Part shown: positions 35,294-64,000 of the stretch, one piece after another
Layout: every line of letters starts with the position of its first letter
How positions within the stretch are numbered: position 1 is the stretch's first letter
Virus record (IMG/VR): IMGVR_UViG_3300031603_000001
Location: 32,001 to 96,000 of that record
From: a virus
Strand: one strand, 5' to 3'
DNA length: 64,000 nucleotides
Notes under the pieces: model-generated
Told to the model about the DNA's origin: nothing
What the model saw: only the letters and a program-made list of their open reading frames with translations
Database searches by the model: none
Made by a program: the position numbers and the translations under genes

Positions 35294-35800
35294 ATGACAT
35301 TAACTAAATTAGCCAAACTAGATGGAGTAGATACCTCGTTAGAGTTTGAAGACCCAGAAGGACGCGACGTACAAGCCATAGCAGTAATAGACGAAAACGG
35401 GGAACACGCAGGGGTTACTGGCACACCCATTAAAGTACAAATAGAAGGCCAAGGAGACGTAGTACTTGGCACAGCTGAAAACCCCCTTGAAGTAAAGGGA
35501 GGCCCCCCTCGCGCCTCCGTAGTCGAAAACCTCGACATGACTACAACTACAGCAGCGGCGGTACAGAGTGCTTTCGCAACCTTAACCCTCGCAGCAGTAC
35601 GGGACGTTCTAATTCAGAACCTCTCTACTTTTGATTGTTACGTAACCTTTGGGGGGACCGCAGTGACTGCAGTAGTAGCCACACATACACTCCTTCGTGC
35701 TAGTGGATCGATCAACCTGGAGAACGTAAAGTTCAACAACTTCTCGGTAATACGAATCGCCGACAACGTAAACGTACGCATCACCGGAATAGGTGGATAA
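35294..35800 (+). CDS. Hypothetical virion-associated beta-sandwich protein
   Basis: 168 aa, AGGA RBS, beta-rich C-terminal domain. Confidence 0.5.
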   Translation: MTLTKLAKLDGVDTSLEFEDPEGRDVQAIAVIDENGEHAGVTGTPIKVQIEGQGDVVLGTAENPLEVKGGPPRASVVENLDMTTTTAAAVQSAFATLTLAAVRDVLIQNLSTFDCYVTFGGTAVTAVVATHTLLRASGSINLENVKFNNFSVIRIADNVNVRITGIGG

Positions 35801-44106: not shown

Positions 44107-44794
44107 ATTCTCCTTTTACTGTTGGTAAAATTGTGTACTGCATCGGACATGCTGAGCATGTATCACAACCCGGCCCAGGAACACCTGGTGTCGCGTTGAT
44201 GCGGATTAGCTCCGCAACGGCTTCTAGCTTAGCTTCGGGGTTATACGTAAACGTAAGGAACTCCCCAAGCATTGGCATAAAGTATGTTAATTGGAAGGGG
44301 CGCTTACCGCGGCTAAGCTCGTAGAGCCTACCATTCCATTGGGCAGCCATGTAGAGTTTAACTCTCTCTTCGGCTGAAGGGTACTCAGTTCTGTAATCAA
44401 ACCATACCATCTGCAACAGCTTAGCCTGTTTTAGACGAACGAGATCAACCTCTCCGAGTAATCCATCGTGATCAATCACGAGATCCTCATCGACTATCTC
44501 TGAACTGTACAACTGAGCTATCATTAGAGTACTCTGCGTTAGCATAATGGTGGAAGCTTTCACGAGGGTCGCTGTCATATTCTGAGGCAACGACGCATCT
44601 TTGAGCTTCTTCAACACATAATCATATGCATTTTCCACGGGACTACCTTTGAACATCGATAGTAACACGGGACCGAGTATCTCTCTATAAAGTAAATACA
44701 GAGGGGGCTTCTCTATAACAAGATCAGCCCTCCTCTTAAGGGGACAGTCATACAAAAACCAATAGACTTGGTCGAATACAACTTGCTTACTCAT
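44087..44794 (-). CDS. Cas4/RecB-like PD-(D/E)XK nuclease with probable Fe-S staple
   Basis: N-terminal DCP, LLGEVDLV...WFDYR, and C-terminal CDTCSAC. Confidence 0.55.
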   Translation of the reverse strand: MSKQVVFDQVYWFLYDCPLKRRADLVIEKPPLYLLYREILGPVLLSMFKGSPVENAYDYVLKKLKDASLPQNMTATLVKASTIMLTQSTLMIAQLYSSEIVDEDLVIDHDGLLGEVDLVRLKQAKLLQMVWFDYRTEYPSAEERVKLYMAAQWNGRLYELSRGKRPFQLTYFMPMLGEFLTFTYNPEAKLEAVAELIRINATPGVPGPGCDTCSACPMQYTILPTVKGEYDAHRY

Positions 44795-46671
44795 GAACGG
44801 AGAATGTCTTTCAACATTGATTGAAAGTACTTAGACAGATTAGAAGGATCTGACACAAATGTATAACCATCTGCGTAGTCAACCTTCTTATGCTTAGGTG
44901 CTTTATCAATACCAAACACAAGGACATGAATGCCCTTACGCTTAGCCCATTGATAGACATCTTGTAAATTAACTGAACCCCACTCGTCGCCGTCCATTAG
45001 AAGTACAACATACTTCTTCTTTGCACGTGAGTGAAGCAACATGTCAACACCGTACTTCATAGCAGCAGGAAGGTCATTCCCTCCTGCGGGTGTCAACACT
45101 CTGTGGATCTCAGCAAGAGTTACTTCTTTAGACTGCTTCTTAGGAACTAAATCAATGAAACCAGCACCTTCACTAGCACAGCCGTAGCCGCCCATGGTCA
45201 GGTTAATTTCTTTGATGTCCTTAGTGGCTAGATACATCTGAGCCATCACATTACGTGCGACATCAGAACTCTCACCCCAAGCATTAGTAGTACTCATAGA
45301 ACCTGATCTATCAAACAGCAGTACAAAGTCAGCCGATGCATCACCATTACGGATCTCCATCACATCTGTCTTAATCTGTGCACGTTTGATATCAGTCTTG
45401 ATCTGATAGAAGTTTGGTGGGTACAGAGTGTCCCCCGTACGACTGGCACTGCGCCCAGCAAGCTTACGCTCACTTATAAGCACCTTGACATAACGTCGTA
45501 GGTTCATTACACCAGCCATACTGATGTTCTCAACAGTCTGTTTACTCACATGCTTTGGAGGAGCAACATATCCACCACCAGAGCCTTTTGCACCGGCCTT
45601 AGGTGTTTTCTTGTACTCCGATCCCTCCATCTCCTGGTCCTTCTTAGCGAATTCTCCACGAGCTGCGGTATCTTCCTCTGCGGCTTTGTCTTCTTTCATC
45701 TCTTCAAGTTCGCCGGCTCCGTCTTCGTCACCAAGTGCATCCATCGCTTCTTTCAAAGCTTCCTTGTCTGCATCTGACATCTCGTCGAAGTCAAACATTC
45801 CGAGACCACCACCACCCATGCCACCAGGCATTCCGCTACCGGAACCCTTAGCAGGAGGTGGATCTGGCGGATCAAAAGTATCCTCATCTTGACCCATTTC
45901 CTCTACCCACCACTCAAGTATTCTGTCGTACAGAGCCTGAGAGATATCAATGCGTTCCTCACGGAACTCATCTGGGTCTTCTACCCAATAACGTCTTGCG
46001 TAGGTAATAGTTGGTACGGTATCTTCGAACACTTTCTCAAGTGGATGTCCGGCCGGGAAGGTTGTAACCATCTCGTCTTCCCACTTGAACTCTAATACAC
46101 CGCGGTAAATACGATACGTATTGTGAAGCATCTCTCTGTAGTAAGCAGCCTCTTCAAAAGAGCCAGCTACCAGAGTAGTCTCATCAAATAAGTTACCCTC
46201 TTCGTCGACTACTACTTCGTTCTGATTAGTAGTTAGCGCTTTGGCTAACTTATACAGCTCAGTAAAGTATGAACCTGATCCCATCCAATGTCTGGGACAG
46301 ACTGTAGTTTCGTTACAGTCATAGATAATGTTTTCATAGAACATAAACAACTGTGTCTCTGTTCCGTTGCCGAATGTTTCAGGACTTACAATATGACCAA
46401 GCTCATGATAGATGAGAGCGCCTAGAATAGTCCAGTACGCCTCATCCGACATCTTCATAGCAATATCTTCGCTCCACATCTTAGCAAGAGTCTTCCGTGT
46501 TACGGGTAGTTGCATATGCATCATACCCTTTTTATCACGGTACGGCTCTTTTGTCTTTGGGTCAATCTTGACCGACGCACCAGGGTAATCGTTAACAGTT
46601 ATGTCACCAAACCCCAATACCTTATTAAGATAGTTGTACACATAGTACGTCATATCCGTGATAGTGTTCAC
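44791..46671 (-). CDS. HExxH metallopeptidase-like domain plus VWA (CobT-like) protein
   Basis: IYHELGH (46393-46407), acidic Gly-rich linker, FVLLFDRSGSM MIDAS, and VVLLMDG. Confidence 0.8.
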   Translation of the reverse strand: MNTITDMTYYVYNYLNKVLGFGDITVNDYPGASVKIDPKTKEPYRDKKGMMHMQLPVTRKTLAKMWSEDIAMKMSDEAYWTILGALIYHELGHIVSPETFGNGTETQLFMFYENIIYDCNETTVCPRHWMGSGSYFTELYKLAKALTTNQNEVVVDEEGNLFDETTLVAGSFEEAAYYREMLHNTYRIYRGVLEFKWEDEMVTTFPAGHPLEKVFEDTVPTITYARRYWVEDPDEFREERIDISQALYDRILEWWVEEMGQDEDTFDPPDPPPAKGSGSGMPGGMGGGGLGMFDFDEMSDADKEALKEAMDALGDEDGAGELEEMKEDKAAEEDTAARGEFAKKDQEMEGSEYKKTPKAGAKGSGGGYVAPPKHVSKQTVENISMAGVMNLRRYVKVLISERKLAGRSASRTGDTLYPPNFYQIKTDIKRAQIKTDVMEIRNGDASADFVLLFDRSGSMSTTNAWGESSDVARNVMAQMYLATKDIKEINLTMGGYGCASEGAGFIDLVPKKQSKEVTLAEIHRVLTPAGGNDLPAAMKYGVDMLLHSRAKKKYVVLLMDGDEWGSVNLQDVYQWAKRKGIHVLVFGIDKAPKHKKVDYADGYTFVSDPSNLSKYFQSMLKDILRS

Positions 46672-48147
46672 TTAGACCCCCTGTTTAACCATATGAGGTG
46701 GTATTTTAATACCAAGCTGATCATCTATACGTGCGGCAATAACCTCACGAATGCTGATGTCAGTGATCTTGGTAATAATGAAATCATGAATGGCAGTCTT
46801 CCATGCCTCAGGTGTATTCCCATTAGCGGCAGCCCAGAAAGCGGCAGACGCTACAGGAGTGTAACCTGCATCAAAGCCAAGAGATACACCATGGCCATCC
46901 GTTGAATGAATCAACTGGAATAACTTAACAGCATACTTATAACTAGGTTTGTTCGTGCCAAGTCTACCGAAATTAGGACGAGCCTCAACGATACACTTCA
47001 TGATCTTGCCTAATTGCGCAGGACTCTTAGGATAATCAAGATACATACTTGTGATTCTACGTTGTTCAGCAGCAGACAGTGGTTGTAAATCATCAGTAAT
47101 GTACTGATCTGTCATAGGATTGGCAGTCAGCAAGAACTGTACGTGTGAGAAATCTACTGTATCAACAAAGGAACTATCCTTCGTAGACATAATGTCGTAT
47201 ACACGGTCACGATCATTTAATAGTCGATAGAACTCTCTACGAGTCTTATCATTAAAAGCATTCCACTCTTCAGTAATAACTAAGAGTTTGATACCAAGCT
47301 TTTTAGTATCACGAGCGGCTTTTAGCAGTACACCTTCTAGAATAAAGGTACCTTCTTCGTTGAAATCATCACGTTCAAACAACCGGTCACCCTGTAGACG
47401 TCCATTTGCATCAATGATAATAGCACCGTAACCGTACTTCTCTAAGGTACCGGCCAGATACCGAGCAAGGTGGGACTTACCAGAGCCAGTAGGCCCGATG
47501 AATCCGACAGCTGCGGCACCATCTAAGATGTATGACTCAGCACGTTTGTTAAACACTTTATCGACAATGATATCGTTAGGTACCTTGACCCGGAAGTGAT
47601 TAGGAATAGTCACCTTACCTGCAGGTAGGAAGCTCTTGTGAAAGGTTTCGTCTTTAATACGTTTACCTTTATCATCATAGAACTCTTGCTTAGTATACGG
47701 TTGCATCTTAGGCAACGTGGTAGGATCTTCTTGCCACATTTTATAAGTTGCTTCGATGTCAGCCTTAGGTATGTCCTCAATTATTAAGTCCAATACCTCA
47801 CGGCACATTTCTGGTATACCAGAGACACTTGAATCAGAAAGTAATTGATCCAAGGTGACAGCACCTGTTTCATACTTCTTAATATCAGAACTCTCGATGT
47901 CCAAGTTAGTTGTAGCGACGGTGACACTAGTGTCTTCCTCCTCCACACTGGCCTGTAGGACATACTTATCCTTCTTACCAGTAACACTAACAACCAGTGC
48001 CTTAAATACAACTAAATAATCAGTTGCTACCTTAGCACCTGCAGTAGGTTTAATTTGTAGACTTACTGAAGGCCATACAGATTTCATGAATGCATCATGA
48101 TTATCAGGTGAAAGTAAAGCAGTAGCTTTCTTTTTTGCAGCAGGCAT
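46672..48147 (-). CDS. MoxR-family AAA+ ATPase (CobS/CbbQ-like)
   Basis: Walker A GFIGPTGSGKS, Walker B LLVITEEWN, sensor FLLTANP; adjacent to the VWA gene. Confidence 0.8.
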   Translation of the reverse strand: MPAAKKKATALLSPDNHDAFMKSVWPSVSLQIKPTAGAKVATDYLVVFKALVVSVTGKKDKYVLQASVEEEDTSVTVATTNLDIESSDIKKYETGAVTLDQLLSDSSVSGIPEMCREVLDLIIEDIPKADIEATYKMWQEDPTTLPKMQPYTKQEFYDDKGKRIKDETFHKSFLPAGKVTIPNHFRVKVPNDIIVDKVFNKRAESYILDGAAAVGFIGPTGSGKSHLARYLAGTLEKYGYGAIIIDANGRLQGDRLFERDDFNEEGTFILEGVLLKAARDTKKLGIKLLVITEEWNAFNDKTRREFYRLLNDRDRVYDIMSTKDSSFVDTVDFSHVQFLLTANPMTDQYITDDLQPLSAAEQRRITSMYLDYPKSPAQLGKIMKCIVEARPNFGRLGTNKPSYKYAVKLFQLIHSTDGHGVSLGFDAGYTPVASAAFWAAANGNTPEAWKTAIHDFIITKITDISIREVIAARIDDQLGIKIPPHMVKQGV

Positions 48148-52125: not shown

Positions 52126-53177
52126 CAGAAGTTCATATCGTCTAGTCCGCCGCCAGTACTGTCAGCTGCCATAGGAGTAATTACATCTTCCACAGGTAGT
52201 TCAGGTTCTGAAGATAGACTTTCTATAACAGTAACTTCTGGTTCTACAACGAGATCAGTTTCGGCGGAACCTTCTAAGACGGATGTGTTCATCTTATTAT
52301 CTTCATCAAATGTGTCAAAAGAGACAACAGTAGACTTAGCTTCACATGATGGACAAATGTAATCAGTATCACCATCTTCACAGAGGTTACAGTCTACGTA
52401 CTCATCTTGAACTACTTCAGGATCTGGATCAGGAGAGTCGTCCTTGTCATCCCCTTCGGGGATAACATCAGATTCGTCAGTAATTTGACTAGCATCATCA
52501 TCGGTAGTTTCTTGAGTCTCTGTAACAACTTCATCAATATCCTGACTACCCTCTTGCTTAGGTTCATCAACAGCACCTTCGGTGTTAACCTCAGTATTAA
52601 CTTCGGTGTCTACTTCGGTGTTAACCTCAATATCAGCTTTCATGGTAGCAGTAGCAACTGCCACAGCTGCAGTGGCAGTTGCCTCCTCGTCACCAAACCA
52701 TGCATTCAAACGAGCGTTAGTCAGTGAACCTTCTGGGAAGATATAACTGATGTCTACACTGGTAGCAAGTACCATAGGAAGCAATGTTTGGATTGTATGA
52801 GTCTTCTGACCTAACAGACGAAGCATACGTACACGTACGCTGTCCTCTTTGATACCTAAGGCCTTGCCTATTTCAACATTAGTCTTGGTGAAATGCATGA
52901 AAGCCCACAGACGATAGATGGGATTCAAGCTCTTAGGTAGAGCTTCTAAGACATCAGCTTTCGCTAGTGCCTTTGCGGGGGTAGTATTAGACTCGATCGT
53001 ATGTCCACTGTCCTTGAGGGCAGAGGAGATAGTCTTATCCATATCCTTAAATTCAGCCGTGGTCTTTGACTTCGTACCATCCGGCTTTACAAGGAACAAT
53101 TCCTGTATATTCTCACGGGTTAAACCCCTGCGAGTAAAATAGGTCAGTGCCTCATCAACTGTCGTTAAGCGTACCAT
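52125..53177 (-). CDS. HTH protein with long acidic low-complexity tail and zinc knuckle
   Basis: TNVEIGKALGIKEDSVRVRMLRL HTH; EVNT tandem repeats; CNLC...CPSC; ends GLDDMNF. Confidence 0.6.
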   Translation of the reverse strand: MVRLTTVDEALTYFTRRGLTRENIQELFLVKPDGTKSKTTAEFKDMDKTISSALKDSGHTIESNTTPAKALAKADVLEALPKSLNPIYRLWAFMHFTKTNVEIGKALGIKEDSVRVRMLRLLGQKTHTIQTLLPMVLATSVDISYIFPEGSLTNARLNAWFGDEEATATAAVAVATATMKADIEVNTEVDTEVNTEVNTEGAVDEPKQEGSQDIDEVVTETQETTDDDASQITDESDVIPEGDDKDDSPDPDPEVVQDEYVDCNLCEDGDTDYICPSCEAKSTVVSFDTFDEDNKMNTSVLEGSAETDLVVEPEVTVIESLSSEPELPVEDVITPMAADSTGGGLDDMNF

Positions 53178-53191
53178 TCAGGTATCCTTTC

Positions 53192-55468
53192 TTAACATCG
53201 CTGCCATGGGCAAGCGATACATCTTTCGCATCCATTCTCATGGATAACGCTCAAGTCATGACAATCAGGACATTGAGTATATTCTGTAGTAGAGGAAGCC
53301 TCTACTACCTTTGGGACTTCAACGATAGCGCCTATTATAGGCACTGCGGTTCTGTCCGCCAAATAACGTTCAAGAGTTTTAGCAACTCCATCTGGTGTGG
53401 ACAAAATACGTGTAGACTTTGTGTCCCCGGGGAAGGTATGGAAGACTGGTATAGAAGAGATACCCTTCAGCTGTTTAATTAACACAGCAGGGTCCACTCC
53501 TGATCTAGCAGCAACACTTATCAGACGACCTAAGGCCTCTGATAATGCAGCTTCATTACCTCCAGCTTTACCTACCCTGGCTATTACTTCTACAAGTCTG
53601 CCTAGCTCATCTTCATTAATAGTAACGAGCATATCACCTGCGCCGGTAAATACTTTCTCCGTAATACCAGCCACACGTTGTGGTCTTGGTGTAGGATGCA
53701 GTAAGTTACCTGAATCATACGGGTGTACAAACTTGGCAGCAACAGTAGCAGGTTTTTCATCCATACTTTTAAGAATCCCATCACGGGAGCCTTCTCGATA
53801 AACAGTGATACCTTTTAGACCTTTGTCGTACGCAAACTCATAGATATTACGTACATCTGCAATTGTTGCAGAGGAAGGAAGATTAACTGTTGACGAGATA
53901 GAAGTATCTATATACTTCTGTACAACACCTTGCATCCTCACCCGAAAGTGTGGATCTATTTGATGTGATACTCGTACATAGTCAGGAATTGGTAACCCAT
54001 TAAGGATAAACCATTGGTGCACTAGTGGATGGTATGCAACAAAATGCTTCTTACCGCCTTCGACTTTCTCGTCGATGACTGTGCGTTTATATTGTGTTTG
54101 GAAGAGGGGTTCGATACCACTTGAGGTACCGGCCACTATACTTCCTGTTCCAACTGGTGCTACAGTTAACAATGTCCCATTACGAAGTCCGTGTTCCTTG
54201 ATAGCCGTTCTAATAGGCTGAGGCAGAGTCTTAAAGAAAGCACTCTTACGGAGTCCTGCTAGATCAAAGGCAGGGAAGGATCCCTTTTCTTTGGCCAAGT
54301 GTATGGACGCACGGTAGGTATTGTCACGGATAAATTCCATAACCTTTTCTACTATATCCAGGGCTTCCTCGGAATCATACTTGACATGTAACTTGATTAG
54401 CATATCTGCCAGTCCAGTGATACCGAACCCAACTCTACGTTGCTCAAGTGCACTTATCTTTTGTTGTTCCAAGGGATGGCGATCAGCATTATAGTCAATA
54501 ACATTGTCCATGTACCTTACGCCTATAAAGATAGTCTTCTTTAACACATCCCAATCAATGCCATGCTTACCCGGGGTGCCGTTCTGTTTAGTCATCTTGG
54601 ATAGATTAATCGCACCAAGATTACAGTTGCCACCATCAGGAAGTGGTTGTTCGCCACAGGGATTTGTACTTACTAATGGAGCACAATACTCCAGGTTATG
54701 AAACTGTTTCATCCTGTCCCAGAAAATGATTCCTGGTTCAGCACTGGCGTGTGCCATGTTGATGATCTTGTCCCATAATTCACGTGCATTGATCTGACGA
54801 TAGACTTTGCCGCCCCACCGTAGTGGGAAGTCTGAGTTTTTCTCCAATGCTTTCATGAACTCATCAGTAATAAGAACACTAATATTTGAATACTGTACCA
54901 TACTACGACTGGCGTCGTTCTTAACATGAATGAATTCTTCAATGTCAGGGTGGTCTACACGCAGTGTCTGCATGTTAGCTCCACGTCGACCGTGCTGGCT
55001 GATGGTATTTGTATTCACAGAGAATAGATCCATGAACCCTACGGGCCCGCAGGATTCTCCACCGGTTCCGCCTATTTTTTCACCACGTGGACGTAGGACT
55101 GACAAGTCATGCCCAACACCTCCCCCCGCTTTATAGGTCCTTGCTTCATCACGTATGGTATCATAAATAGCATTAATACTATCAGACTTGATTTCAATTA
55201 CATAACAATTAGTTAAGGTTGACTTAAAGTCCGTGCCCGCACCATGCATGATGCGGCCACCTGGAATGAAGCGCCAATCAGTAAGCGCCCAGAGAAAATC
55301 AGCATTGACCTGCTCACGTACATCAGGTTTTTCAACCTCTGCTATGGCTTGGGCTCCGCGTCTCCAGATATCTGCCGGTTCTGATTCTTCACCGTATATG
55401 TACTTTGCTTTGAGAGTACTTTCTCCTAGGCCTCCGTCACCGAAGTCCTTGTAATATTCTATTGGCAT
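53192..55468 (-). CDS. nrdJ: Class II (adenosylcobalamin-dependent) ribonucleotide reductase with TSCPD domain
   Basis: FIPGGRI, LTNCYV, TNPCGEQPL, CNLGAINL, TVAPVGT, SSTVNLP, ITVYREGSR, and C-terminal CPDC...CERC. Confidence 0.92.
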   Translation of the reverse strand: MPIEYYKDFGDGGLGESTLKAKYIYGEESEPADIWRRGAQAIAEVEKPDVREQVNADFLWALTDWRFIPGGRIMHGAGTDFKSTLTNCYVIEIKSDSINAIYDTIRDEARTYKAGGGVGHDLSVLRPRGEKIGGTGGESCGPVGFMDLFSVNTNTISQHGRRGANMQTLRVDHPDIEEFIHVKNDASRSMVQYSNISVLITDEFMKALEKNSDFPLRWGGKVYRQINARELWDKIINMAHASAEPGIIFWDRMKQFHNLEYCAPLVSTNPCGEQPLPDGGNCNLGAINLSKMTKQNGTPGKHGIDWDVLKKTIFIGVRYMDNVIDYNADRHPLEQQKISALEQRRVGFGITGLADMLIKLHVKYDSEEALDIVEKVMEFIRDNTYRASIHLAKEKGSFPAFDLAGLRKSAFFKTLPQPIRTAIKEHGLRNGTLLTVAPVGTGSIVAGTSSGIEPLFQTQYKRTVIDEKVEGGKKHFVAYHPLVHQWFILNGLPIPDYVRVSHQIDPHFRVRMQGVVQKYIDTSISSTVNLPSSATIADVRNIYEFAYDKGLKGITVYREGSRDGILKSMDEKPATVAAKFVHPYDSGNLLHPTPRPQRVAGITEKVFTGAGDMLVTINEDELGRLVEVIARVGKAGGNEAALSEALGRLISVAARSGVDPAVLIKQLKGISSIPVFHTFPGDTKSTRILSTPDGVAKTLERYLADRTAVPIIGAIVEVPKVVEASSTTEYTQCPDCHDLSVIHENGCERCIACPWQRC

Positions 55469-55485
55469 ATTATCCTTTTAATAAA

Positions 55486-56226
55486 TTACACTTCCAGTAG
55501 ATTAAACTCGAATCCTGAGTCTATCCAGAAGTCAATATACATAACTACGGCATTAGCTAACACAGCGTCTTTGACTTGAGTTAGTATCATGTTACGTACT
55601 TTTAGCATGTCCTCTGTAAGTACATGCAGAACAGACCTGCCCTTAGGCAGTAAGTCCAACAACTTAGGTACTTCGGAAATTAAACTATCCAGATTCATTC
55701 CTGTTAAACTGTCTTGTACAACAAGAGGAAGTGCTACTTCAGGCATCAGCCCTGGTACAGCTTCCGGACTTGATGCACCTTCCAGTACAGGCATGCCTTT
55801 TAGTTGTTTGTAAATGTCCATAAATGGACGATCCCAAAACTCCTGTCCCTTTTCATTGAGTGTAGATAGTATAACTTGTTGATCATCATACACTCCCTCG
55901 AATAAGGAAAAAGCTGCCCTATCTACTCCAATAATTGGTATATCTAGAATAGAATTAGGATCAACAGTGATTTCATTAATCTTCTCTAGAACACTATCGA
56001 ACTCAGATTTTAGAGCCCTAGCTTCCGGGCTTTCCAAGTAAGTACTTAAGTAACTATCCTGTATCATTTGTGGCATACTGATTAGGTTCTTCTCGTCAAG
56101 TCCGTCAATATAAATCTCTAAACTACGGAGCTTTATCTTTCTGATAGAAATGAGTACTTCTCGTAATACTAGGAACTCATCCTCCGAACCAGGGCTTGGT
56201 ACCCTGGCCGGTTCAATGATTAACAC
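55486..56226 (-). CDS. Hypothetical acidic protein (start re-assigned to GTG 56226)
   Basis: TAGTG overlap with the Sak stop gives a coupled start. Confidence 0.55.
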   Translation of the reverse strand: MLIIEPARVPSPGSEDEFLVLREVLISIRKIKLRSLEIYIDGLDEKNLISMPQMIQDSYLSTYLESPEARALKSEFDSVLEKINEITVDPNSILDIPIIGVDRAAFSLFEGVYDDQQVILSTLNEKGQEFWDRPFMDIYKQLKGMPVLEGASSPEAVPGLMPEVALPLVVQDSLTGMNLDSLISEVPKLLDLLPKGRSVLHVLTEDMLKVRNMILTQVKDAVLANAVVMYIDFWIDSGFEFNLLEV

Positions 56227-56867
56227 TAAGCCCCAGCCCCAGTTGGAACCCTTCGCCGCAAGTACGCATTGTACTTGTGTGCTTTTTCGATAGTCCAAAG
56301 GCCTTCGTTCTTCATTTGCTCAACTGCAGTTTCGGGTAATGTATCCCCGACCTTTTCAATAAGCTCTTTGAACTCAGCCATCTGGTCGTCACGAATTGCG
56401 TACAGATTGCTAACCTGTGGCGCTGTTTCGTGGTCTTCTCCACGATACAAATATGCACCTAGTCCGAATGATGCAGCACATCTACGCAGCAATGAAGCGC
56501 GCGCGATAGTTGCAGGTGGAATATTACCACCACCATCCATAGAGGTTGGAGCATTAGCGTCATAGTACCCGACGTTGTCACGCCGTACACCATAAATATC
56601 AAGGTGTCCGTACAAAGTAAGCCACTTGCTACCCTTGGTCTCCTCAGTAATGATAAGCTTCCACCCCGGTACGACAGTGTTCAGTACGGCTTCAATATCT
56701 ATCCACTTAATATAACTAAGTGCATGCCCAGTGTGTGGGTCATTGAAAGTACTAATCAATTCGACAGGCAGGGGCATACCTAGCGCATCAAGGATTTGTG
56801 TATCCCATTTGAGAAAACGCTTGGTAGGTACCGGCAGCTTAAGATCAGCTATTGTTATCTTGGCCAT
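56226..56867 (-). CDS. Rad52/22-family single-strand annealing protein (Sak)
   Basis: LSYIKWIDIEAVLNTVVPGW...GVRRDNVG...SLLRRCAASFGLGAYLY; GGAGG RBS before ATG 56867. Confidence 0.8.
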   Translation of the reverse strand: MAKITIADLKLPVPTKRFLKWDTQILDALGMPLPVELISTFNDPHTGHALSYIKWIDIEAVLNTVVPGWKLIITEETKGSKWLTLYGHLDIYGVRRDNVGYYDANAPTSMDGGGNIPPATIARASLLRRCAASFGLGAYLYRGEDHETAPQVSNLYAIRDDQMAEFKELIEKVGDTLPETAVEQMKNEGLWTIEKAHKYNAYLRRRVPTGAGA

Positions 56868-57543
56868 TAGCGGCCCTCCTTGTTTCGACTTCCGGAAGCA
56901 CATCTTCCAGAGTTCGTTTAAACAGCTCCGACTTGTTATACCGAGCCGTAGCTGTTATGTCTTTCTTATGAGGTTCTTTGTACAGCTGAACCCCAAACCC
57001 TGTGTCCACTATCAAAGCATCCCAAGGCATATCTTTATACCCTAAGTCCAGTGATAGTTCAGAGACGTCGTCGTCCACTCCGGGAGTGAAGGTATACCCA
57101 CGTCGGATACGTTCTTGTAGAACTGTTTCTATCCGGATAGAGTACACCAATATATCATCAAGCTTCTTGAAATATTCAATCTCATTTAGGAACCTGCAAT
57201 CCGGTACGATAATAATGTCCGCACCGCCTGCTTCGGCTACATCTTGTAGCTTAATACACCAGTAATCCACATCCTCAGCGCGCCTTTGTTGACCTAAAGA
57301 GATCATAGCAGGACGCCACTTCTTTTTGATAGGGCTACTGTTGTCTTGGATAGATTTAATTGATGGTATCTCATCAGGATAAGTATCCATCAACTCCTGC
57401 CGTATAGCATCTGCTAGATGATGTATAGCAGGGTCCTCCGGTGTCGCAGTACTCCAGCGCATGGCATTAGTAAGTGCCTCGGCTAGAGTATCTTTGCCAT
57501 TCAACCGCTTCCCTGATATCAACACATAGATTTGTTTTGACAT
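56845..57543 (-). CDS. Deoxynucleoside monophosphate kinase (P-loop)
   Basis: ISGKRLNGKDT, LADAIR, LGQQRR...YW, IIIVPDCRFLNE, and SELSLD. Confidence 0.8.
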   Translation of the reverse strand: MSKQIYVLISGKRLNGKDTLAEALTNAMRWSTATPEDPAIHHLADAIRQELMDTYPDEIPSIKSIQDNSSPIKKKWRPAMISLGQQRRAEDVDYWCIKLQDVAEAGGADIIIVPDCRFLNEIEYFKKLDDILVYSIRIETVLQERIRRGYTFTPGVDDDVSELSLDLGYKDMPWDALIVDTGFGVQLYKEPHKKDITATARYNKSELFKRTLEDVLPEVETRRAANGQDNNS

Positions 57544-58148
57544 CAGAAACTACAGCGGAGTTTTAAAGGCTTCTTTACACCACGATAGTGATTCATCAGA
57601 GCCTGTGCACCGAACAGCGCCGCCATCCGGTTACCAAGCTGAAGTAATCCAGCCTGTAAATCTGCTTCAATAGCACAACCGCGTGTGTTATTCTCAGGCT
57701 TAAGCGATTCCTGAGTAATCTCCAGCAGCTGATCGACAGTCATCTTTGAATCCTTATTGATACAAATAGACTCTCTACCTTCTGCCCGTAGATCAATCCA
57801 GTACGGAACCTTGTCCTGTGCTTTGAACACCATACGTCTAAACGCAACGTTATCCACAGCAATCATGACTACATCGAAGTCAGCTAATTGATCCATAGTA
57901 TTAACACGTTCACGTACAACTTCATCAATAGCATACCCTTGCTCGACCAATGCATCAACCTTATACATCATACCATCTGCATGAAACTCGTCAAAGTTTT
58001 GATACAATACATTCCTACGTTCAACAAGATCATCGTCGAACACAGTTAAATGCATGTCAGGCATTTGACTTGACTTGATCTCTTCATCTGCAATTATATC
58101 CACTGCATATGAACCGATTCCGCCAGCACCTACCAGTGCTACCTTCAT
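57543..58148 (-). CDS. Minimal ThiF/MoeB/E1-like adenylyltransferase
   Basis: VALVGAGGIGS, FDDDLVERRNVLYQ, KVDAL, AVDN. No CxxC zinc pairs; lone Cys158 (RGC) at the putative thioester position. Confidence 0.9.
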   Translation of the reverse strand: MKVALVGAGGIGSYAVDIIADEEIKSSQMPDMHLTVFDDDLVERRNVLYQNFDEFHADGMMYKVDALVEQGYAIDEVVRERVNTMDQLADFDVVMIAVDNVAFRRMVFKAQDKVPYWIDLRAEGRESICINKDSKMTVDQLLEITQESLKPENNTRGCAIEADLQAGLLQLGNRMAALFGAQALMNHYRGVKKPLKLRCSF

Positions 58149-58361
58149 CTATCCGCCTACTACTTGGGCGATCAATTCGATAAATGGTTCAGCATCTATC
58201 ATAGGCTGAGTCAACGACTCAGGAAGTACACGTTTGCCGTCCAGGATAATCCAGGCTTCATGCTTAATAGCATCGGCTTTGATGGCTTCAATAGCCTCTA
58301 TAGAAGGAACATTATGCGCCTTTACAGATTGGTTCACGAAATATTCAGTAAGACCTGTCAT
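58149..58361 (-). CDS. Ubiquitin-like (beta-grasp) protein ending in Gly-Gly
   Basis: 70 aa; beta-beta-alpha-beta(WIILDG)-beta pattern; ends IELIAQVVGG-stop; abuts ThiF with a 0-nt gap; GGAG RBS. Confidence 0.75.
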   Translation of the reverse strand: MTGLTEYFVNQSVKAHNVPSIEAIEAIKADAIKHEAWIILDGKRVLPESLTQPMIDAEPFIELIAQVVGG

Positions 58362-58452
58362 ATTTTCTCCAATATAAACATTAATAGTGACAATGCAAAG
58401 TATTATTTACACTAATGTACACAGTGTGAAGTATTCTTTACGTTAATCAATT
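58362..58452 (-). promoter_or_regulatory. AT-rich intergenic region with imperfect palindrome (possible promoter/operator of Ubl-E1)
   Basis: TTTACACT-N9-AGTGTGAA at 58406-58430; TTGCAT-N16-TATATT on the minus strand. Confidence 0.35.
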
Positions 58453-61005
58453 CTACAGGGTATCGATGTCAGTCGACAGCCGCATATCATTTGCCAGAAC
58501 ATACAATCTGGAGACCAGTTTCTGTTCAGGATAAATGTATTCAGCTTTATCAACCATACATATATACTCACCTGTTTTGTACCGAAAGACACTAGCATAG
58601 CTGTTTGATTCAGTACTCAATAGGTAGTCATCCAGACCGCCTTTGATTCTGTATCCGTTAATCGCGGATTGATTTAATGGTGTACACACTGCAGGTACAG
58701 CAGAGGTTAGCTTAACAGCACGAACAATAGAGCTTGCCAGAATAATCTTAGTGGCACGATATCTTTCAGCAGCTTCTTGATACAGCATATTATGCAGTCC
58801 CATCATCCGATCTTGAAATCGAAGGGCACGTGCAGCTAACTTAGCTTTACTAGGCTTACGACGTAGTGCAATAATCTTGCCGTCGGATCCCCTATTAGCT
58901 TTGTGTGTCTTACGTTTCTTAGGACGACACACTCTGTCCATTAGAGTGGAAAGCGCTAGAGGCCCAAGTCCTCTGTCCTGCTTCTTAGTAAACCAGGACG
59001 CACCCCCGCAGTGGAACGTACCGTACTTACTCTCTAGTTGAATAGACTTTCCGTCCTTAGTAGGTTCAAATTCAAATAGAATTCCACCATCCATACCAAC
59101 GTTCTGAAACTGTAACCCACGGGCTACAATGTTACGAAACGCTACAGACATCTTCGATACCTGAGAGAGGTACTCATCGAAATCTGATTGTGTATTACAC
59201 ATGAAAGCATAACGAACAACTTCTTTGAAGTCATCGTTTCTTATCTTCACACCATTAACTATAAGAGGACTGCCAATTTGATAGGTAGTGAAGCGTAACT
59301 TCACATCCCCAAGTTGTACCATCATTGCATGTATCTGATGCAGGCTGCTTTCTTTCCAACCAGCCATGGTTACCGCTTTAGGACCTTCTATTGGATATCT
59401 ATCCAAACGATGCCCACTGTACTCTTTGTATACAGTGGGAAGATGTGCCTCAACTGATGACATTACCAAGTCATAAGTTAACTTAGATATCTCAGCGCCG
59501 GAGGCGGAGTAACCAAGCACGGAACATGCGCCCATAGGTACGTTAACGATAGCAATATCATCAGAATCTTTCGAAGCCGCACCCTGACGGATAGAAATGA
59601 TAGTACCTGAGACTTCCTGTCCTTGGTACATCACACGGTTCTCTTCGTAGATCATATCATTATAGGCTAGTCTATTGTGACCATTGATACGGTCATCATA
59701 AACAGCTTTAAGACTTTTCGTAGATAATCCATGAACTCCAGAGCCACTCGCCATTTGGGCAAGACGTTGACTAGAACGTTGATTTAATACAATCAACTCA
59801 ACAGCAACATCTTTAGGCATGAAACCTGACATAGAAGAGTCAGCACTAATCATGGTTTTACCAGGCACCTCGTAAATATCTTTATCGACACTCCAATTAT
59901 AGATTGCCTTTACATTTCTACGGTTGGTACTTAAGCGGCGCGCAGTATCTCGGAGATCTTTCTGAGCCCAGTTCAATCCAGAACTTAACTCATGACCTGC
60001 CAAGGAACTTAATATCACAGTCCACTTATCGGAACTTGTATCCAAGTATGAATACATCAACTGATCAGGATCCAGAGCATTGTATAGCGCAGCCTGTGAG
60101 GAATGTACAACTAGGTACTGTTCCATACTCCCATTGATATCGTAACATCTAGTTATCCTAAGGTTGTTATCCATCGGATGTACTTTAATCTTACACTTAT
60201 GACGGTAGCTTACTATAGTAGACATCTCTCCGGTATCACCGTAGAATGCTACATTACAATTGTCCAGCTTACCAGTAGTAGTAGCGCCTCGTCTCCAGAA
60301 ATGGAAAGGCTCAACCTTACTGACAAGACGATTAACCATCTTCTCATTAGAGGTTTGTCCATCAGCATGCTGCAGCTGTACACTACCTGTTGCATCCACA
60401 TCAACGTGCACTCCTTTAACAGTGCCCAGGGTTGTTTGCAGGGTTTTAGTAGACGCTAAAGCTTCTTCAGTCTTAGCAATCCCCTTGTCGTAATCAAACT
60501 CCACCGGTACAACCAGGTGGCCATTTGGGAAATACAAACAAGGGCCTACTTTGCCTAACGTGTATGCCAGTTGCTTAAGAGCAGCCTGTTGATAGATATC
60601 ACTCCACTTAAGGATAACACCTCTTTGCATGATAGGTATAGTGAGAGCATCAGCGTTGCTGTAGCTTCTCCCAGGGTTCCTTAGAACAATCAATTCAAAC
60701 TGAAGTTGTTCTAGCTGCTTAGGATCAATGGTACCGTCGATGATTGCATCTAGATCCGCAGCGGACTTAATAAAAGGATTCTCTGAAGCAGAGACATCGA
60801 TGAATCGCAAGCCAGCTACGATCGAAGAGTTGTCTGGATTTAACAGCTTAGATATCAGCAGTATCTCGAGGGCTTTGTAGTACTCCTCGCTCTCTTCGAT
60901 GGATGTTGTGTAGTTCTGTAAGAACATAGCAATGCCAGGCATCTGCGCTAAGTGGGGTCCATCACCAACGCGCAGTGCCTCCCAATAATGTCTATTCAGT
61001 TTCAT
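58453..61005 (-). CDS. Large hypothetical protein upstream of the Ubl-E1 pair
   Basis: 850 aa, coupled to primase; C-terminal GEYICMVD...SRLYVLAND...IDTL. Confidence 0.75.
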   Translation of the reverse strand: MKLNRHYWEALRVGDGPHLAQMPGIAMFLQNYTTSIEESEEYYKALEILLISKLLNPDNSSIVAGLRFIDVSASENPFIKSAADLDAIIDGTIDPKQLEQLQFELIVLRNPGRSYSNADALTIPIMQRGVILKWSDIYQQAALKQLAYTLGKVGPCLYFPNGHLVVPVEFDYDKGIAKTEEALASTKTLQTTLGTVKGVHVDVDATGSVQLQHADGQTSNEKMVNRLVSKVEPFHFWRRGATTTGKLDNCNVAFYGDTGEMSTIVSYRHKCKIKVHPMDNNLRITRCYDINGSMEQYLVVHSSQAALYNALDPDQLMYSYLDTSSDKWTVILSSLAGHELSSGLNWAQKDLRDTARRLSTNRRNVKAIYNWSVDKDIYEVPGKTMISADSSMSGFMPKDVAVELIVLNQRSSQRLAQMASGSGVHGLSTKSLKAVYDDRINGHNRLAYNDMIYEENRVMYQGQEVSGTIISIRQGAASKDSDDIAIVNVPMGACSVLGYSASGAEISKLTYDLVMSSVEAHLPTVYKEYSGHRLDRYPIEGPKAVTMAGWKESSLHQIHAMMVQLGDVKLRFTTYQIGSPLIVNGVKIRNDDFKEVVRYAFMCNTQSDFDEYLSQVSKMSVAFRNIVARGLQFQNVGMDGGILFEFEPTKDGKSIQLESKYGTFHCGGASWFTKKQDRGLGPLALSTLMDRVCRPKKRKTHKANRGSDGKIIALRRKPSKAKLAARALRFQDRMMGLHNMLYQEAAERYRATKIILASSIVRAVKLTSAVPAVCTPLNQSAINGYRIKGGLDDYLLSTESNSYASVFRYKTGEYICMVDKAEYIYPEQKLVSRLYVLANDMRLSTDIDTL

Positions 61006-62275
61006 GAACGTTCACCGTGATACCCAGCTTTAAAGTGTTAGGGTCTGCTTCACTTATGGTTTGGAGTAGCACCTGTAGGCGCCATCTCTGGTATAATTGT
61101 TCTTCTTTCTCTACAGCAGCTTCGACCTCCTCAATAGAGATCTCTGTCATGTAAGAAAGTGCGGCAATATAACGAGGCCTCAGCAGAGGACTAGCCTTAG
61201 CAATTAACCTGCAGGCTTCCACCATCTGTTGTCTATTACGATACGCCCCATTAATTAACTCCCATCCAAATAGATCCCACTCTTCAAGGTTAAGGAATGC
61301 TTCCATACCTTTCTTTTTAATGTAATCATCTGGGTCTGACTCCTTAGGAATCAATATGGCAGTAGCATTAGGGAGCAATGCCAACAGCTTGGTAGCCTTA
61401 GTAACACCACCCTTGTCACCGTCAAATGCGATGACAACTTTAGGAAAAGCTTTTAGTACCTCAACTTGCCCATCAGTTACATTATTTGATAGTACTCCTA
61501 TCGTATTAGGTAACTTGTTTGTGCAAGCGGTGATAACATCTGTTTGACCTTCCATCATGTATAACACTTCGTAATGCTTAGCGCGTGACATGTTATAGAA
61601 CGTACGACCTTTATTAAACACCTCATTGTTAGGACTATTAATGTACTTAGATAAGTCTTCGCCTTTAGATTTCTCTGAGACCCGACCACTGAATGCAATG
61701 GGTACACCATTGTAATCACGCAGTGTGAACATCATTCGTTCATTACCGTACAACTCTTTGTTACGTAAGCCTGCTTTCCACACCGCCTGCTTACCGTACT
61801 GGGTCTCCGCAGCCTTAAGCAAGGCCTCGTACCCTATAATCCAACCAATTCCGTACCGCTTAGCTACTTTAGGTGTGTAACCTCTCTTAGCTAAGAGATC
61901 CTCATATCCTTCTGAACTTAAGTTCTGAGAGATGAGACGGTATACACCTTTGATCTGCTGGGATACTGATAGTTGCCTTCCTTTAGGGGGACTGTATGGA
62001 ATACCATATCGATCCGCTAAGGTCTGCACTGTTGTCTCCATGAAGCCTGGGCCACCTGGCTCAGGTAATCCTTCGAGGAACGCGGCCAGATGGAAGATAT
62101 TACCACCCATGCCGCAGCCGAAGCAGTGCCAAATAGGCCCACTCACGTGGAAGGACGGACCAGTGTCGTCATGTATTGGGCAACGGCCCAATGAAGAACT
62201 GTTAAGAGCGATACCCATTTCCCGTAGGTAATCAGGTAACTTCTCACCAAGTGCTTTAATCACATCAACAGCCAT
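60992..62275 (-). CDS. dnaG: DNA primase DnaG
   Basis: CHC2 finger CPIHDD...WHCFGC, KYINSP, Toprim MEGQTDV and AFDGD. Confidence 0.92.
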   Translation of the reverse strand: MAVDVIKALGEKLPDYLREMGIALNSSSLGRCPIHDDTGPSFHVSGPIWHCFGCGMGGNIFHLAAFLEGLPEPGGPGFMETTVQTLADRYGIPYSPPKGRQLSVSQQIKGVYRLISQNLSSEGYEDLLAKRGYTPKVAKRYGIGWIIGYEALLKAAETQYGKQAVWKAGLRNKELYGNERMMFTLRDYNGVPIAFSGRVSEKSKGEDLSKYINSPNNEVFNKGRTFYNMSRAKHYEVLYMMEGQTDVITACTNKLPNTIGVLSNNVTDGQVEVLKAFPKVVIAFDGDKGGVTKATKLLALLPNATAILIPKESDPDDYIKKKGMEAFLNLEEWDLFGWELINGAYRNRQQMVEACRLIAKASPLLRPRYIAALSYMTEISIEEVEAAVEKEEQLYQRWRLQVLLQTISEADPNTLKLGITVNVHETE

Positions 62276-62286
62276 TCAAATTGTCC

Positions 62287-63057
62287 TTATGTAAGTTTAT
62301 TGATTACACGAGAGGAGAGTTCATTCTCTACTGGACTCTGTAAACAAAGGATCACTTCTTCTAGCTCATATTTTGAGAGTGATGCTTTTAATTGAAGAAT
62401 CTCTAGGGTCATCTGAATGATTTCCCCATCAGGTCCTTCTGCACCTTCGCCAGTGCCATCGGTAGGTGTACCAACAGCTTTGAACTGATCAATATACTCA
62501 GTAGGGTGACACCATACATCCATATACAACCAGGACTTCTTAATGAACTCCTCTGTGTGTGGGATCTTCGCTACTAAGACAGGTAACGACTCTTCGAAAT
62601 CCATAGGCCTACCTGCTTCTGCAGTCAAGTCATTCATGATCTTATGAATCTTGAATACTACCTGCTGCATCAGTGGTGTACCTTGAGGTATGAGTTGATC
62701 ATACTTCTGTAGATAACGAAAGAGCGTCGTCTTGATCTCTCGGGTATAATATGTTGTTAACCTATACCCAGAGTCTAATTTATAATCCTCAAGCTTCTCT
62801 ATGAATCTTAGTACAGCTACCTGTAAGAGATCTAAATGAGAAAGACCGTGATACTTATTGTCATTGGGGTAAACTCCACGGACAAGCTTAGCCAGGTACA
62901 CCATGTGGTATTGAGTCAGCTCCTTAAGAGCTGTTCTCTTCTCCGCATCGGTACCCGTTAGAAATGCAGTCATGCATTCCAGCTCGTGGCCAGCTTCCAT
63001 ACGTTGCTTACCTGCTGAAAGTTTATGTAAAACCTTCGTGAATTCACCAGGGGTCAT
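62287..63057 (-). CDS. Sigma-70-family RNA polymerase sigma factor
   Basis: Region 2 DLLQVAVLRFIEKLEDYKLDSGYRLTTYYTREIK, followed by a region-3-like segment. Confidence 0.75.
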   Translation of the reverse strand: MTPGEFTKVLHKLSAGKQRMEAGHELECMTAFLTGTDAEKRTALKELTQYHMVYLAKLVRGVYPNDNKYHGLSHLDLLQVAVLRFIEKLEDYKLDSGYRLTTYYTREIKTTLFRYLQKYDQLIPQGTPLMQQVVFKIHKIMNDLTAEAGRPMDFEESLPVLVAKIPHTEEFIKKSWLYMDVWCHPTEYIDQFKAVGTPTDGTGEGAEGPDGEIIQMTLEILQLKASLSKYELEEVILCLQSPVENELSSRVINKLT

Positions 63058-63998
63058 GCAGCTTTCTCCAACTTAATAGTGTGAACCTTCTCTCCCTTAG
63101 AAAGGGTCTTCACACGCAGCTCAGGCTCCGCTGTTAGCCTTACTGGCACAACACCAGGGGCAACAACATTCATGTAGTCATACATGGCTTGTGCCATCTC
63201 ACGTTCATCAACGAGTCTGTATTCTAATACAACCTCGTCGTGAATTAGATTAGTAATGTACACATCTCTGCCATCAAAGTGTCTAGACAACTGTCCCATC
63301 ACCTTCTTGGCAACGTTAGCGCCGGGCCCTTGGATCAGGAAGTTCAGAGCTGATAAGGTGTTATCCACAAAAGGAGTGTGTCTTACACGTCCATAAATGT
63401 TAACTAACTTACGTTTAACCTTAAGCTCTCTCTTCTTATCATCAAGGAATGCTTTAACACCAGGAAACAACTCGTACCAAGCAGCGATGTCCCCCTCTGC
63501 ATCTTCAAAGGTCTTGTCAACCAGACCCATGTTACGATACGTCGTGTACAATCCTGCCGGCCCTGAGCCGTACATGATACCGAAGTTAACCGGTTTAGCA
63601 TTCTTACGTTTCTTTTTAGCAGCAATTTTAATCAATGGATCTTTCGAATGCATATCAATAAAGATTTGCTGAGGAGTAGTATCGTTAATTTTAGCTGCGG
63701 TCACTGTATGGAGGTCTCCCTCTGGATCCGGGCCAAACTTAGCGTCTTCCTTCTTACAAGTAGGACAAGCATTGACGCCTGTCTTCCTGTATTTAATAGG
63801 AGCCGTAGCACAGCACGTGCTTACGATACGAGATTGATCATCACGAATCTGTACCAAACGCGTCAAGACAGGACAGCCTGAGGCTGCTGCCATTAGCGAT
63901 ACTTCTTGAGCATCCCAATCCGCTTTGGCAAAGTAGTACCCAGCATGTGGTGTATACATACGACGAGCGTCGTACATATGGATCTTAGTGACCTCAGT
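63054..63998 (-). CDS. polA: Family A DNA polymerase, C-terminal part (5'-truncated by the window)
   Basis: Motif A ADWDAQE, DLHTVTA, motif B RKNAKPVNFGIMYG, motif C IHDEV. The frame is open to the window edge. Confidence 0.92.
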   Translation of the reverse strand, partial: TEVTKIHMYDARRMYTPHAGYYFAKADWDAQEVSLMAAASGCPVLTRLVQIRDDQSRIVSTCCATAPIKYRKTGVNACPTCKKEDAKFGPDPEGDLHTVTAAKINDTTPQQIFIDMHSKDPLIKIAAKKKRKNAKPVNFGIMYGSGPAGLYTTYRNMGLVDKTFEDAEGDIAAWYELFPGVKAFLDDKKRELKVKRKLVNIYGRVRHTPFVDNTLSALNFLIQGPGANVAKKVMGQLSRHFDGRDVYITNLIHDEVVLEYRLVDEREMAQAMYDYMNVVAPGVVPVRLTAEPELRVKTLSKGEKVHTIKLEKAA

Positions 63999-64000
63999 GC

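Follow-up and report, generated by a model that had tools for sequence, protein, structure and literature searches.

The 64,000-nucleotide stretch of viral DNA analysed here (the window; bases 32001-96000 of the 197,958-bp IMG/VR virus record IMGVR_UViG_3300031603_000001, which has a GC content of 44%; feature coordinates are window positions) carries three adjacent genes on its minus strand. They code for an 850-amino-acid (aa) protein of no known family, termed Big (58453..61005), followed directly by a 70-aa ubiquitin-like protein (Ubl) of the beta-grasp type with an exposed C-terminal Gly-Gly (58149..58361), and by a 201-aa minimal ThiF/E1-type adenylating enzyme, termed E1 (57543..58148). 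On balance, their sequences suggest that Big, Ubl and E1 form the core of a virus-borne module for Ubl activation and transfer, used for protein tagging. The E1 and the Ubl very probably constitute a cognate pair, and Big is a probable functional partner of both. The original prediction, made from the letters of the window, had described a 70-aa GG-ended protein abutting a 201-aa ThiF/E1; both open reading frames (ORFs) were recovered as described, and the larger one passed the Pfam ThiF profile.

The Ubl ends in QVVGG, followed immediately by a TAG stop codon, and contains four lysines and no cysteine. AlphaFold modelled it with a pLDDT of 85 as a beta-grasp fold, its elements running in the order beta-beta-alpha-beta-beta-(alpha)-beta, and Pfam, PHROGs, NCBIfam and PADLOC contained no family that matched it. 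Its relatives are scarce, with three found among 1.8 billion representative proteins, all on uncultured contigs, and no additional ones when viral contigs were scanned with a pattern built from the Ubl alignment. The terminal GG was kept by four relatives at 34-42% identity, and in the subclade of the window Ubl it was terminal in that protein and in all five other sequences, the relatives ending in V/I-G-G. Eleven more distant homologues were located by their position beside E1 relatives; the GG was terminal in eight and followed by one further residue in three. When the family of the window Ubl was compared with the Ubls of these distant loci by hhalign, the two aligned up to the final GG (97.8% probability, E 1.3e-12; 0.2% for a reversed control), so that by profile similarity they are one family. 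The original prediction had staked its case on a beta-grasp fold and on conservation of the GG: the fold was predicted and the GG is kept in the subclade. Its view that the Ubl needs no maturation agrees with a GG that is terminal as encoded.

A GGAG ribosome-binding site lies 6 nt ahead of the Ubl ATG, and the Ubl TAG abuts the E1 ATG with no base between them, a junction by which the two genes are judged to be translationally coupled. The minus-strand Ubl gene was accepted as real because of this ribosome-binding site, the conserved homologues and the confident fold; that an antisense 83-aa ORF (58164-58415, plus strand) might be the real gene, or the Ubl ORF a product of chance, was rejected. 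The only other GG-ended predicted protein in the genome is a 168-aa ORF in the structural-gene arm (35294-35800, plus strand), which ends in TGIGG; chance would be expected to give about 0.7 GG-ended ORFs in a set of 290, which makes its GG probably a coincidence.

The E1 scored 34.8 bits against the Pfam ThiF profile PF00899 (cut-off 28.1; E 1.3e-8), and its predicted model shows the Rossmann-type fold of an adenylation domain. Its motifs are GAGGIG (residues 7-12), DDDLVERRN (38-46), K63 and VDN (98-100), and G7-x-G9-G10-I-G12, D38/D40 and D99-N100 were invariant in 17-27 members of the E1 family. The GxGxxG motif binds the nucleotide, the acidic residue of DxD the ribose, and the Asp of the DN motif Mg. 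The ATP site had originally been called intact, which held for these motifs and failed at two further places. Tyr49 occupies the canonical Arg position of NLxRQ in alignments to UBA6 and AclA and is invariant across the clade. The model begins at MoeB residue 32 or ThiF residue 29, so the N-terminal segment, which supplies the arginine finger in MoeB, is missing. Position 45, one turn of the helix before Tyr49, is a conserved Lys/Arg that might make up for the lost arginine. The E1 is atypical, yet still within the ThiF/E1 superfamily. Its top sequence match in the PDB was AclA, on which a literature search retrieved nothing, and its relatives numbered four among 5.8 billion proteins, all of them on uncultured contigs.

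As first described, the E1 contains no CxxC pair and so no zinc site. Cys158 had been taken for its lone cysteine, which was incorrect, as Cys129 and Cys199 are also present; of the three, Cys158 alone is kept in all of 27 family members at 26-100% identity. It adjoins residues 153-157, the sole stretch of the E1 model with a pLDDT below 50, and the alignment ranges would put it no more than a few residues away from ThiF Cys184 and MoeB Cys187.

A scan with the E1 alignment pattern detected 22 more IMG/VR loci and 31 contigs of metagenome-assembled genomes (MAGs) from species-representative genomes, and the ORFs of the related loci (numbered with the prefix L) were surveyed by script and BLASTP. 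Homologues of Big adjoined the E1 gene in all 19 loci compared (the window and 18 others, about 17 distinct contigs), and a small GG-ended protein was present in 17 of the 19. The closest relatives share the synteny PolA, 256-aa protein, primase, ~840-aa protein, Ubl, E1 and kinase. Three gene orders were distinguished: Big-Ubl-(JAB)-E1 in L012-L017, L034 and L035, where the small protein has 65-85 aa and ends in GG (or GGN/GGC) and a Prok-JAB protein of 155-171 aa is usually present; Big-E1-GG-ended protein in L036, L040 and L044; and E1-x-Big-x-GG-ended protein in L042 and L043. The contigs with the cassette have been assigned either to viruses or, with uncertain binning, to MAGs from Bacteroidales, Planctomycetota, Omnitrophota, Methanomassiliicoccaceae, Methanoperedens, Bathyarchaeia, Aenigmatarchaeota and Micrarchaeota. 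Among GenBank phages the cassette was found in no cultured phage: blastn and tblastn with the window E1 gave no match, the E1 of a Bacteroidales contig gave one partial weak match, to the uncultured phage cr106_1, and the Big homologue of that contig gave none. This survey of gene neighbourhoods, which the original prediction had proposed, bore out the linkage of the GG-ended protein with the E1 and added Big and, in some relatives, a JAB as parts, so that the stripped-down, E2-independent system of two genes first envisaged is not well supported.

Two observations concern particular branches of the E1 family. In the Methanoperedens-assigned contigs L040 and L044, a 166-aa protein ending in GKGG is encoded downstream of the E1 (L040:6675-7175 and L044:6589-7089), with a Big homologue upstream. 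A second, more distant E1 subclade (L018-L033, L041 and P0005 in L010; E1 at about 6001-6600 in most) keeps a YQN motif and the Cys loop in a different but conserved neighbourhood, which runs from an orphan of ~380-470 aa through a ~265-305-aa protein to the E1. The ~265-305-aa protein has a weak N-terminal zinc-ribbon match and the conserved C-terminus F-[IV]-x-G-[IV]-R-Y-[EDG], and a few genes past the E1 there are proteins of 157-195 aa with a weak JAB-like match, ending in EEE. No GG-ended Ubl lies beside the E1 of this subclade, which may therefore act on the C-terminal end of some larger protein.

Big is conserved over its C-terminal ~300 residues, and its homologues range from 556 to 871 aa (BLASTP E down to 5e-16). 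In an alignment of 19 sequences the invariant residues were R283, Y794, C816 and D840. The motif of the terminal module is Y-[IVL]-C-[IM]-[VI]-D (Y-I-C-[IM]-V-D-K with Cys816), followed by a helix that ends in ..N-D...A..I-x-T-L or ..ND..L....I.TL at the end of the chain. Neither the whole protein nor its last 120 residues retrieved anything useful from Pfam, PHROGs, NCBIfam or PADLOC, the sole family hit being a sub-threshold match of one homologue to DUF7737 (E 3e-4). Sequence-profile searches of the PDB gave no match, the ESM Atlas held a poor model (pLDDT 0.30) with no usable neighbours, and word-based homologue searches returned near-identical proteins only. With no invariant His, Big is an unlikely cysteine protease. 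That it might instead be an E2-like carrier is a tentative proposal, to which we give somewhat less than an even chance; it rests on the invariant Cys, on the lack of an invariant His and on a loose resemblance of its Y-P-x-G-x-Y-I-C-I-V-D to the E2 motif H-P-N...G-x-I-C-L-D.

The constant presence of Big beside the E1, together with the GG-ended protein in 17 of the 19 loci, would also suit a system in which the Ubl is attached, with no E2-like step, to Big only, as a regulatory or scaffold modification of a protein associated with replication, or to an amine of a lipid, nucleotide or nucleic acid, in the manner of Atg8-PE or MccB-type chemistry. The searches turned up no recognisable E2, SAMP/UbaA and Urm1/Uba4 are established cases of conjugation without an E2 (PMC9574740), and other bond types are possible for ThiF-like enzymes (PMC12596934). 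However, the tabulated invariants of Big comprise one Cys, Arg, Tyr and Asp and no Lys, and a Cys but no Lys among the invariants speaks for catalysis or a carrier function rather than for an acceptor site. Nor does anything tie the module to lipid or nucleic-acid chemistry, and we consider these variants quite improbable.

A JAB gene was found in six loci (L012-L015, L035 and L034). The HxHx7Sx2D metal-binding motif was intact in all five aligned proteins (L012-L015 and L035), and the best NCBIfam match was the archaeal (Haloferax) desampylase, at E 4e-17 and below the cut-off. All three Ubls that end in GG plus one residue adjoin a JAB gene, and an AAA ATPase is encoded three genes beyond the E1 in L012 and L013. 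In the Methanomassiliicoccaceae-assigned L034 (3515-3940) the JAB is split into ORFs of 48 and 83 aa by one in-frame TAA, and may be decaying or reflect a sequencing error; in L016 and L017 the JAB position holds unrelated ORFs of 46-78 aa only. With L034 split and L016 and L017 lacking a JAB, its loss apparently occurred more than once. Since relatives carry a canonical JAMM protease between Ubl and E1, the JAB-less state of the window phage is best read as a secondary loss, and the window lineage is one of Big, mature Ubl and E1 from which the protease has been lost.

Accessory genes were sought by six-frame profile searches of the whole 198-kb record. No JAB was detected with PF14464 or PF01398 at E <= 1, a clade-specific JAB hidden Markov model reached a best E of 2, and the ThiS/MoaD profile PF02597 gave nothing at E <= 10. 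No cysteine desulfurase (Aminotran_5), Rhodanese or PP-loop ATPase (ATP_bind_3) was found at E <= 1, with ThiG and MoaE not searched, and no Prok-E2_B or UQ_con in the record or in four related virus records, with the other Prok-E2 families not searched. The absence of accessory genes claimed by the original prediction was borne out for the JAB, the Prok-E2_B and UQ_con domains and the ThiS profile.

In the favoured mechanism the E1, probably a homodimer like ThiF and MoeB, would bind ATP and adenylate the C-terminal glycine of the Ubl (Gly70), a step suggested by the fold, the motifs and the co-conserved GG. Within the flexible loop of the E1, Cys158 would take over the Ubl as a thioester, and the Ubl would be handed to or onto Big, whose Cys816 is the foremost candidate as second thioester carrier, in the manner of an E2/E3 hybrid; alternatively, transfer might proceed directly from the E1 to lysines. 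The final acceptors would be lysines in proteins, of the phage or its host, that are active in the replication phase. In the relatives, the JAMM protease would trim the GG-plus-one Ubl precursors and may also remove conjugates, a step that the window lineage would have dispensed with by encoding its Ubl already mature.

Several points weigh against this mechanism. The E1 lacks two canonical ATP-contacting arginines, that of NLxRQ and that of the N-terminal finger, so adenylation by this enzyme is an assumption. The hhalign comparison of the Big module with Cap2-type E2 domains (0.3% probability) and with PRTRC_B (0.2-0.3%) returned no more than the level of the negative controls, and the Pfam, NCBIfam, PADLOC and PDB profile searches lent no support to an E2-like C-terminal module. 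JAB proteases also occur in the sulfur-carrier systems CysO/Mec and QbsE/QbsD, so their presence is no proof of conjugation, and minimal single-domain E1s are typical of sulfur carriers.

These last points bear on a sulfur-carrier role, in which the E1 would adenylate the Ubl, a host persulfide donor would convert it to a C-terminal thiocarboxylate with Cys158 acting like ThiF Cys184, and Big would be the enzyme that inserts the sulfur, the recipient being a nucleotide, a tRNA, a DNA base or a cofactor. The ThiF-like size of the E1 fits such a role, as do the conserved Cys near the ThiF Cys184 position inferred from the alignment ranges, the JABs that accompany some sulfur carriers, the coupling of the E1 to a nucleotide kinase-like gene and the ribonucleotide reductase (RNR) near the module in the window, L013 and L014. 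Yet it is disfavoured by the lack of a desulfurase, rhodanese, PP-loop enzyme or ThiS-profile match in the 198-kb genome, in which host enzymes could substitute; the E1 has no rhodanese domain, and Big has a single invariant Cys and no PP-loop or radical-SAM cysteine pattern. The AAA ATPase and desampylase-like JAB of the relatives suit conjugation better, and we regard the sulfur-carrier role, though the main rival, as unlikely. Among tagging, jamming of host defence and sulfur transfer, the balance leans towards tagging.

The module was compared with the known systems that it resembles. PRTRC is a ParB-related, ThiF-related cassette of plasmids and integrative and conjugative elements (NCBIfam TIGR03734-03742). 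PRTRC_ThiF (TIGR03736) was the best-scoring named family for the E1, at 41.4 bits against a cut-off of 144.75, and the L012 relative reached 64 bits over nearly its full length; the E1's top structural match among viral proteins (BFVD) was likewise a PRTRC_ThiF, of an uncultured Caudovirales phage. The PRTRC ThiF of Bacteroidota has a Cys loop, S-C-x-L-A..E-L, at the same aligned position as the phage E1, and both cassettes lie on mobile elements and have no characterised function. In contrast, PRTRC ThiF retains the NLGRQ arginine and an N-terminal extension, reads W-x-D-F-G-N-S where the phage clade has W-I-D-L-R-A-E-G-R, and is preceded by PRTRC_B, which was not detectably related to Big in the hhalign comparison given above (0.2-0.3%); neither Big nor the Ubl matched any NCBIfam PRTRC protein. 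The record had no ParB_N match at E <= 1, and with a ThiF below the cut-off, no ParB and no relation of Big to PRTRC_B, the module was rejected as a PRTRC cassette.

The sulfur-carrier pairs ThiF/ThiS and MoeB/MoaD share with the phage proteins a GG-ended beta-grasp substrate and a Cys at about the position of ThiF Cys184, whereas the phage E1 lacks the CxxC zinc site and the arginine-finger segment and has Tyr for the NLxRQ Arg. The Ubl was rejected as a ThiS/MoaD carrier, given no PF02597 match and no desulfurase, rhodanese or PP-loop partner (ThiG and MoaE not being among those searched). The systems SAMP/UbaA/HvJAMM1, Thermus TtuB/TtuC and Urm1/Uba4 (PMC9574740, PMC4443979) double as sulfur carriers and also combine a GG-ended beta-grasp protein with an E1 of ThiF size and no canonical E2, SAMP/UbaA and Urm1/Uba4 being the nearest systems without an E2, and the JAB of the relatives best matches the Haloferax desampylase model. 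The phage E1, however, has no rhodanese domain or zinc site and scored 18.4 bits against a cut-off of 450 for SAMPActivE1UbaA, the Ubl matched no model, and a large Cys-bearing partner occurs only in the phage module; with the UbaA and SAMP family models unmatched, assignment to the SAMP system was rejected.

Closest in logic are Bil, CBASS Cap2/Cap3 and Bub (PMC10557695, PMC10097602, PMC11601596), with a Ubl, an E1, a Cys/Ser carrier and a peptidase, but these defend the host, and they have larger E1s and E2s recognisable as such. Bil (BilA Ubl, BilB E2, BilC JAB and BilD E1; PMC10557695) resembles the module in its Gly-ended Ubl, its E1, the JAB of the relatives and a cysteine-bearing fourth protein, and a logic of the conjugation type is expected of both. 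The phage module differs in being virus-encoded, in its E1, a bare 200-residue adenylation domain, in having an orphan of 556-871 aa and no recognisable E2, and in having no JAB in the window lineage. There was no family-level sequence match, and the module was rejected as Bil, given no JAB and no Prok-E2_B or UQ_con match in the record. Since host Ubl systems of these three kinds are known anti-phage defences, the module might act as a counter-defence decoy that soaks up the host E2 or JAB or caps phage proteins which would otherwise receive a host tag, a biological role compatible with any of the mechanisms above. Weak PADLOC matches of the E1 to Cap2-type E1-E2 models and the patchy presence of the JAB across the family would fit a decoy. 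The module lies, however, in a replication block and not in an anti-defence island, is found in elements of bacteria and archaea whose hosts differ widely, and is remote in sequence from the Bil and Cap2 families, its proteins scoring well under the cut-offs; we consider a decoy role highly improbable.

ThiF-like genes of viruses and other elements have been reported before: those of Methanoperedens jumbo extrachromosomal elements were paired in silico with host ThiS/SAMP in a 2026 paper (PMC13444090), and one was noted in the Asgard virus Nidhogg (bioRxiv 10.1101/2021.07.29.454249). Larger 'ThiF' proteins of crAss001 and Acinetobacter phage ME3 are present in BFVD. In these reports the enzyme was treated by itself and paired with host ThiS/SAMP or host ubiquitin systems, whereas the Methanoperedens contigs L040 and L044 carry E1-clade members with their own GG-ended protein and Big; if these contigs are the published Methanoperedens elements, the ThiF-like enzyme may have its own neighbouring GG-ended substrate. 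In the literature searched, TAPI was the only phage Ubl discussed, a protein of tail assembly with JAB/NlpC partners but no E1 (PMC1779556), and E1 and Ubl genes go unmentioned in a survey of 224 jumbo phages (PMC7824862). No publication describing the Ubl-E1-Big triad was found in a literature search. Machinery for Ubl activation and conjugation is as a kind already known; what appears to be new is its apparent ownership by a virus, with an atypical minimal E1 and a putative new partner family.

To date, work on prokaryotic Ubl conjugation has treated it either as part of the host's arsenal against phages (Bil, CBASS Cap2/Cap3, Bub) or as a housekeeping function of archaea (SAMPs), and a conserved Ubl-E1-partner kit owned by viruses would show that phages tag proteins too. 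The very small E1 (~200 residues, no zinc site, non-canonical ATP contacts) would be useful for mechanistic work, Big would stand as a new cysteine-bearing partner family, and the form found in the window phage, with a mature Ubl and no protease, should be the easiest to reconstitute. A bolder proposal, that viruses and extrachromosomal elements of bacteria and archaea have a complete three-protein Ubl conjugation pathway of their own, in which Big, resembling an E2/E3 hybrid, receives the Ubl on its invariant C-terminal cysteine and chooses host or viral targets during genome replication, is in our view doubtful; if true, it would be a mirror image of the host Bil, CBASS and Bub defences and reveal a new lineage of E2-like enzymes. 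Were the sulfur-carrier role correct, an unrecognised thio-modification during phage replication would likewise be new.

The Ubl/E1 pair is embedded in a phage block for replication and nucleotide metabolism, as the original prediction had held in placing it in a replication operon. On the same strand the block comprises a fusion of uracil-DNA glycosylase (UDG) and PolA, a 256-aa protein with a weak sigma-70 region-2 match, a DnaG-type primase, the 850-aa orphan Big, Ubl, E1 and a 232-aa dNMP-kinase-like gene (56845..57543, minus strand; Pfam P-mevalo_kinase and DNMK, PHROG 139 dNMP kinase). Past the latter follow a weak match to a single-strand-annealing protein, a 270-aa orphan, a class II-type RNR, a RecD2-type helicase, a clamp-loader-like ATPase and a MoxR-like/VWA pair. 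The ATG of the dNMP-kinase-like gene and the TGA of the E1 overlap by one base. The same overlap, of one to four bases in the closest relatives, occurs in L002-L004, L005, L008 and L009 and is absent from the more distant loci, which makes the kinase-like gene probably a neighbour rather than a core part. Its product scored better against the Pfam phosphomevalonate kinase (animal-type PMVK, E 1.8e-15) than against DNMK.

The 91-bp gap between Big and the Ubl gene, the only intergenic gap of the module, contains a promoter-like site, TTCACA-17-AATAAT (58402..58430, minus strand), just upstream of the Ubl gene. It matches the consensus at 10 of 12 positions, the joint top hexamer score in a scan of 53000-64000, and is weak evidence for a promoter because the total number of sites was no higher than in shuffled sequence.

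Three minor observations concern other genes of the block. At its downstream end, a MoxR-like AAA+ ATPase (AAA_5) adjoins a 626-aa VWA-domain protein (44791-48147, minus strand); the AAA ATPase of L012 and L013 is instead a classical one. The window RNR (53192-55468) has 758 aa, and the RNR in a 55%-identical relative (L002/L003:11167-14589) has 1140 aa, with intein and LAGLIDADG matches. UDG-PolA is a single protein of ~1020-1030 aa in the window (63054 onward), L005 and L008, and is split into ORFs of 642 and 384 aa in L002/L003 (394-3473).

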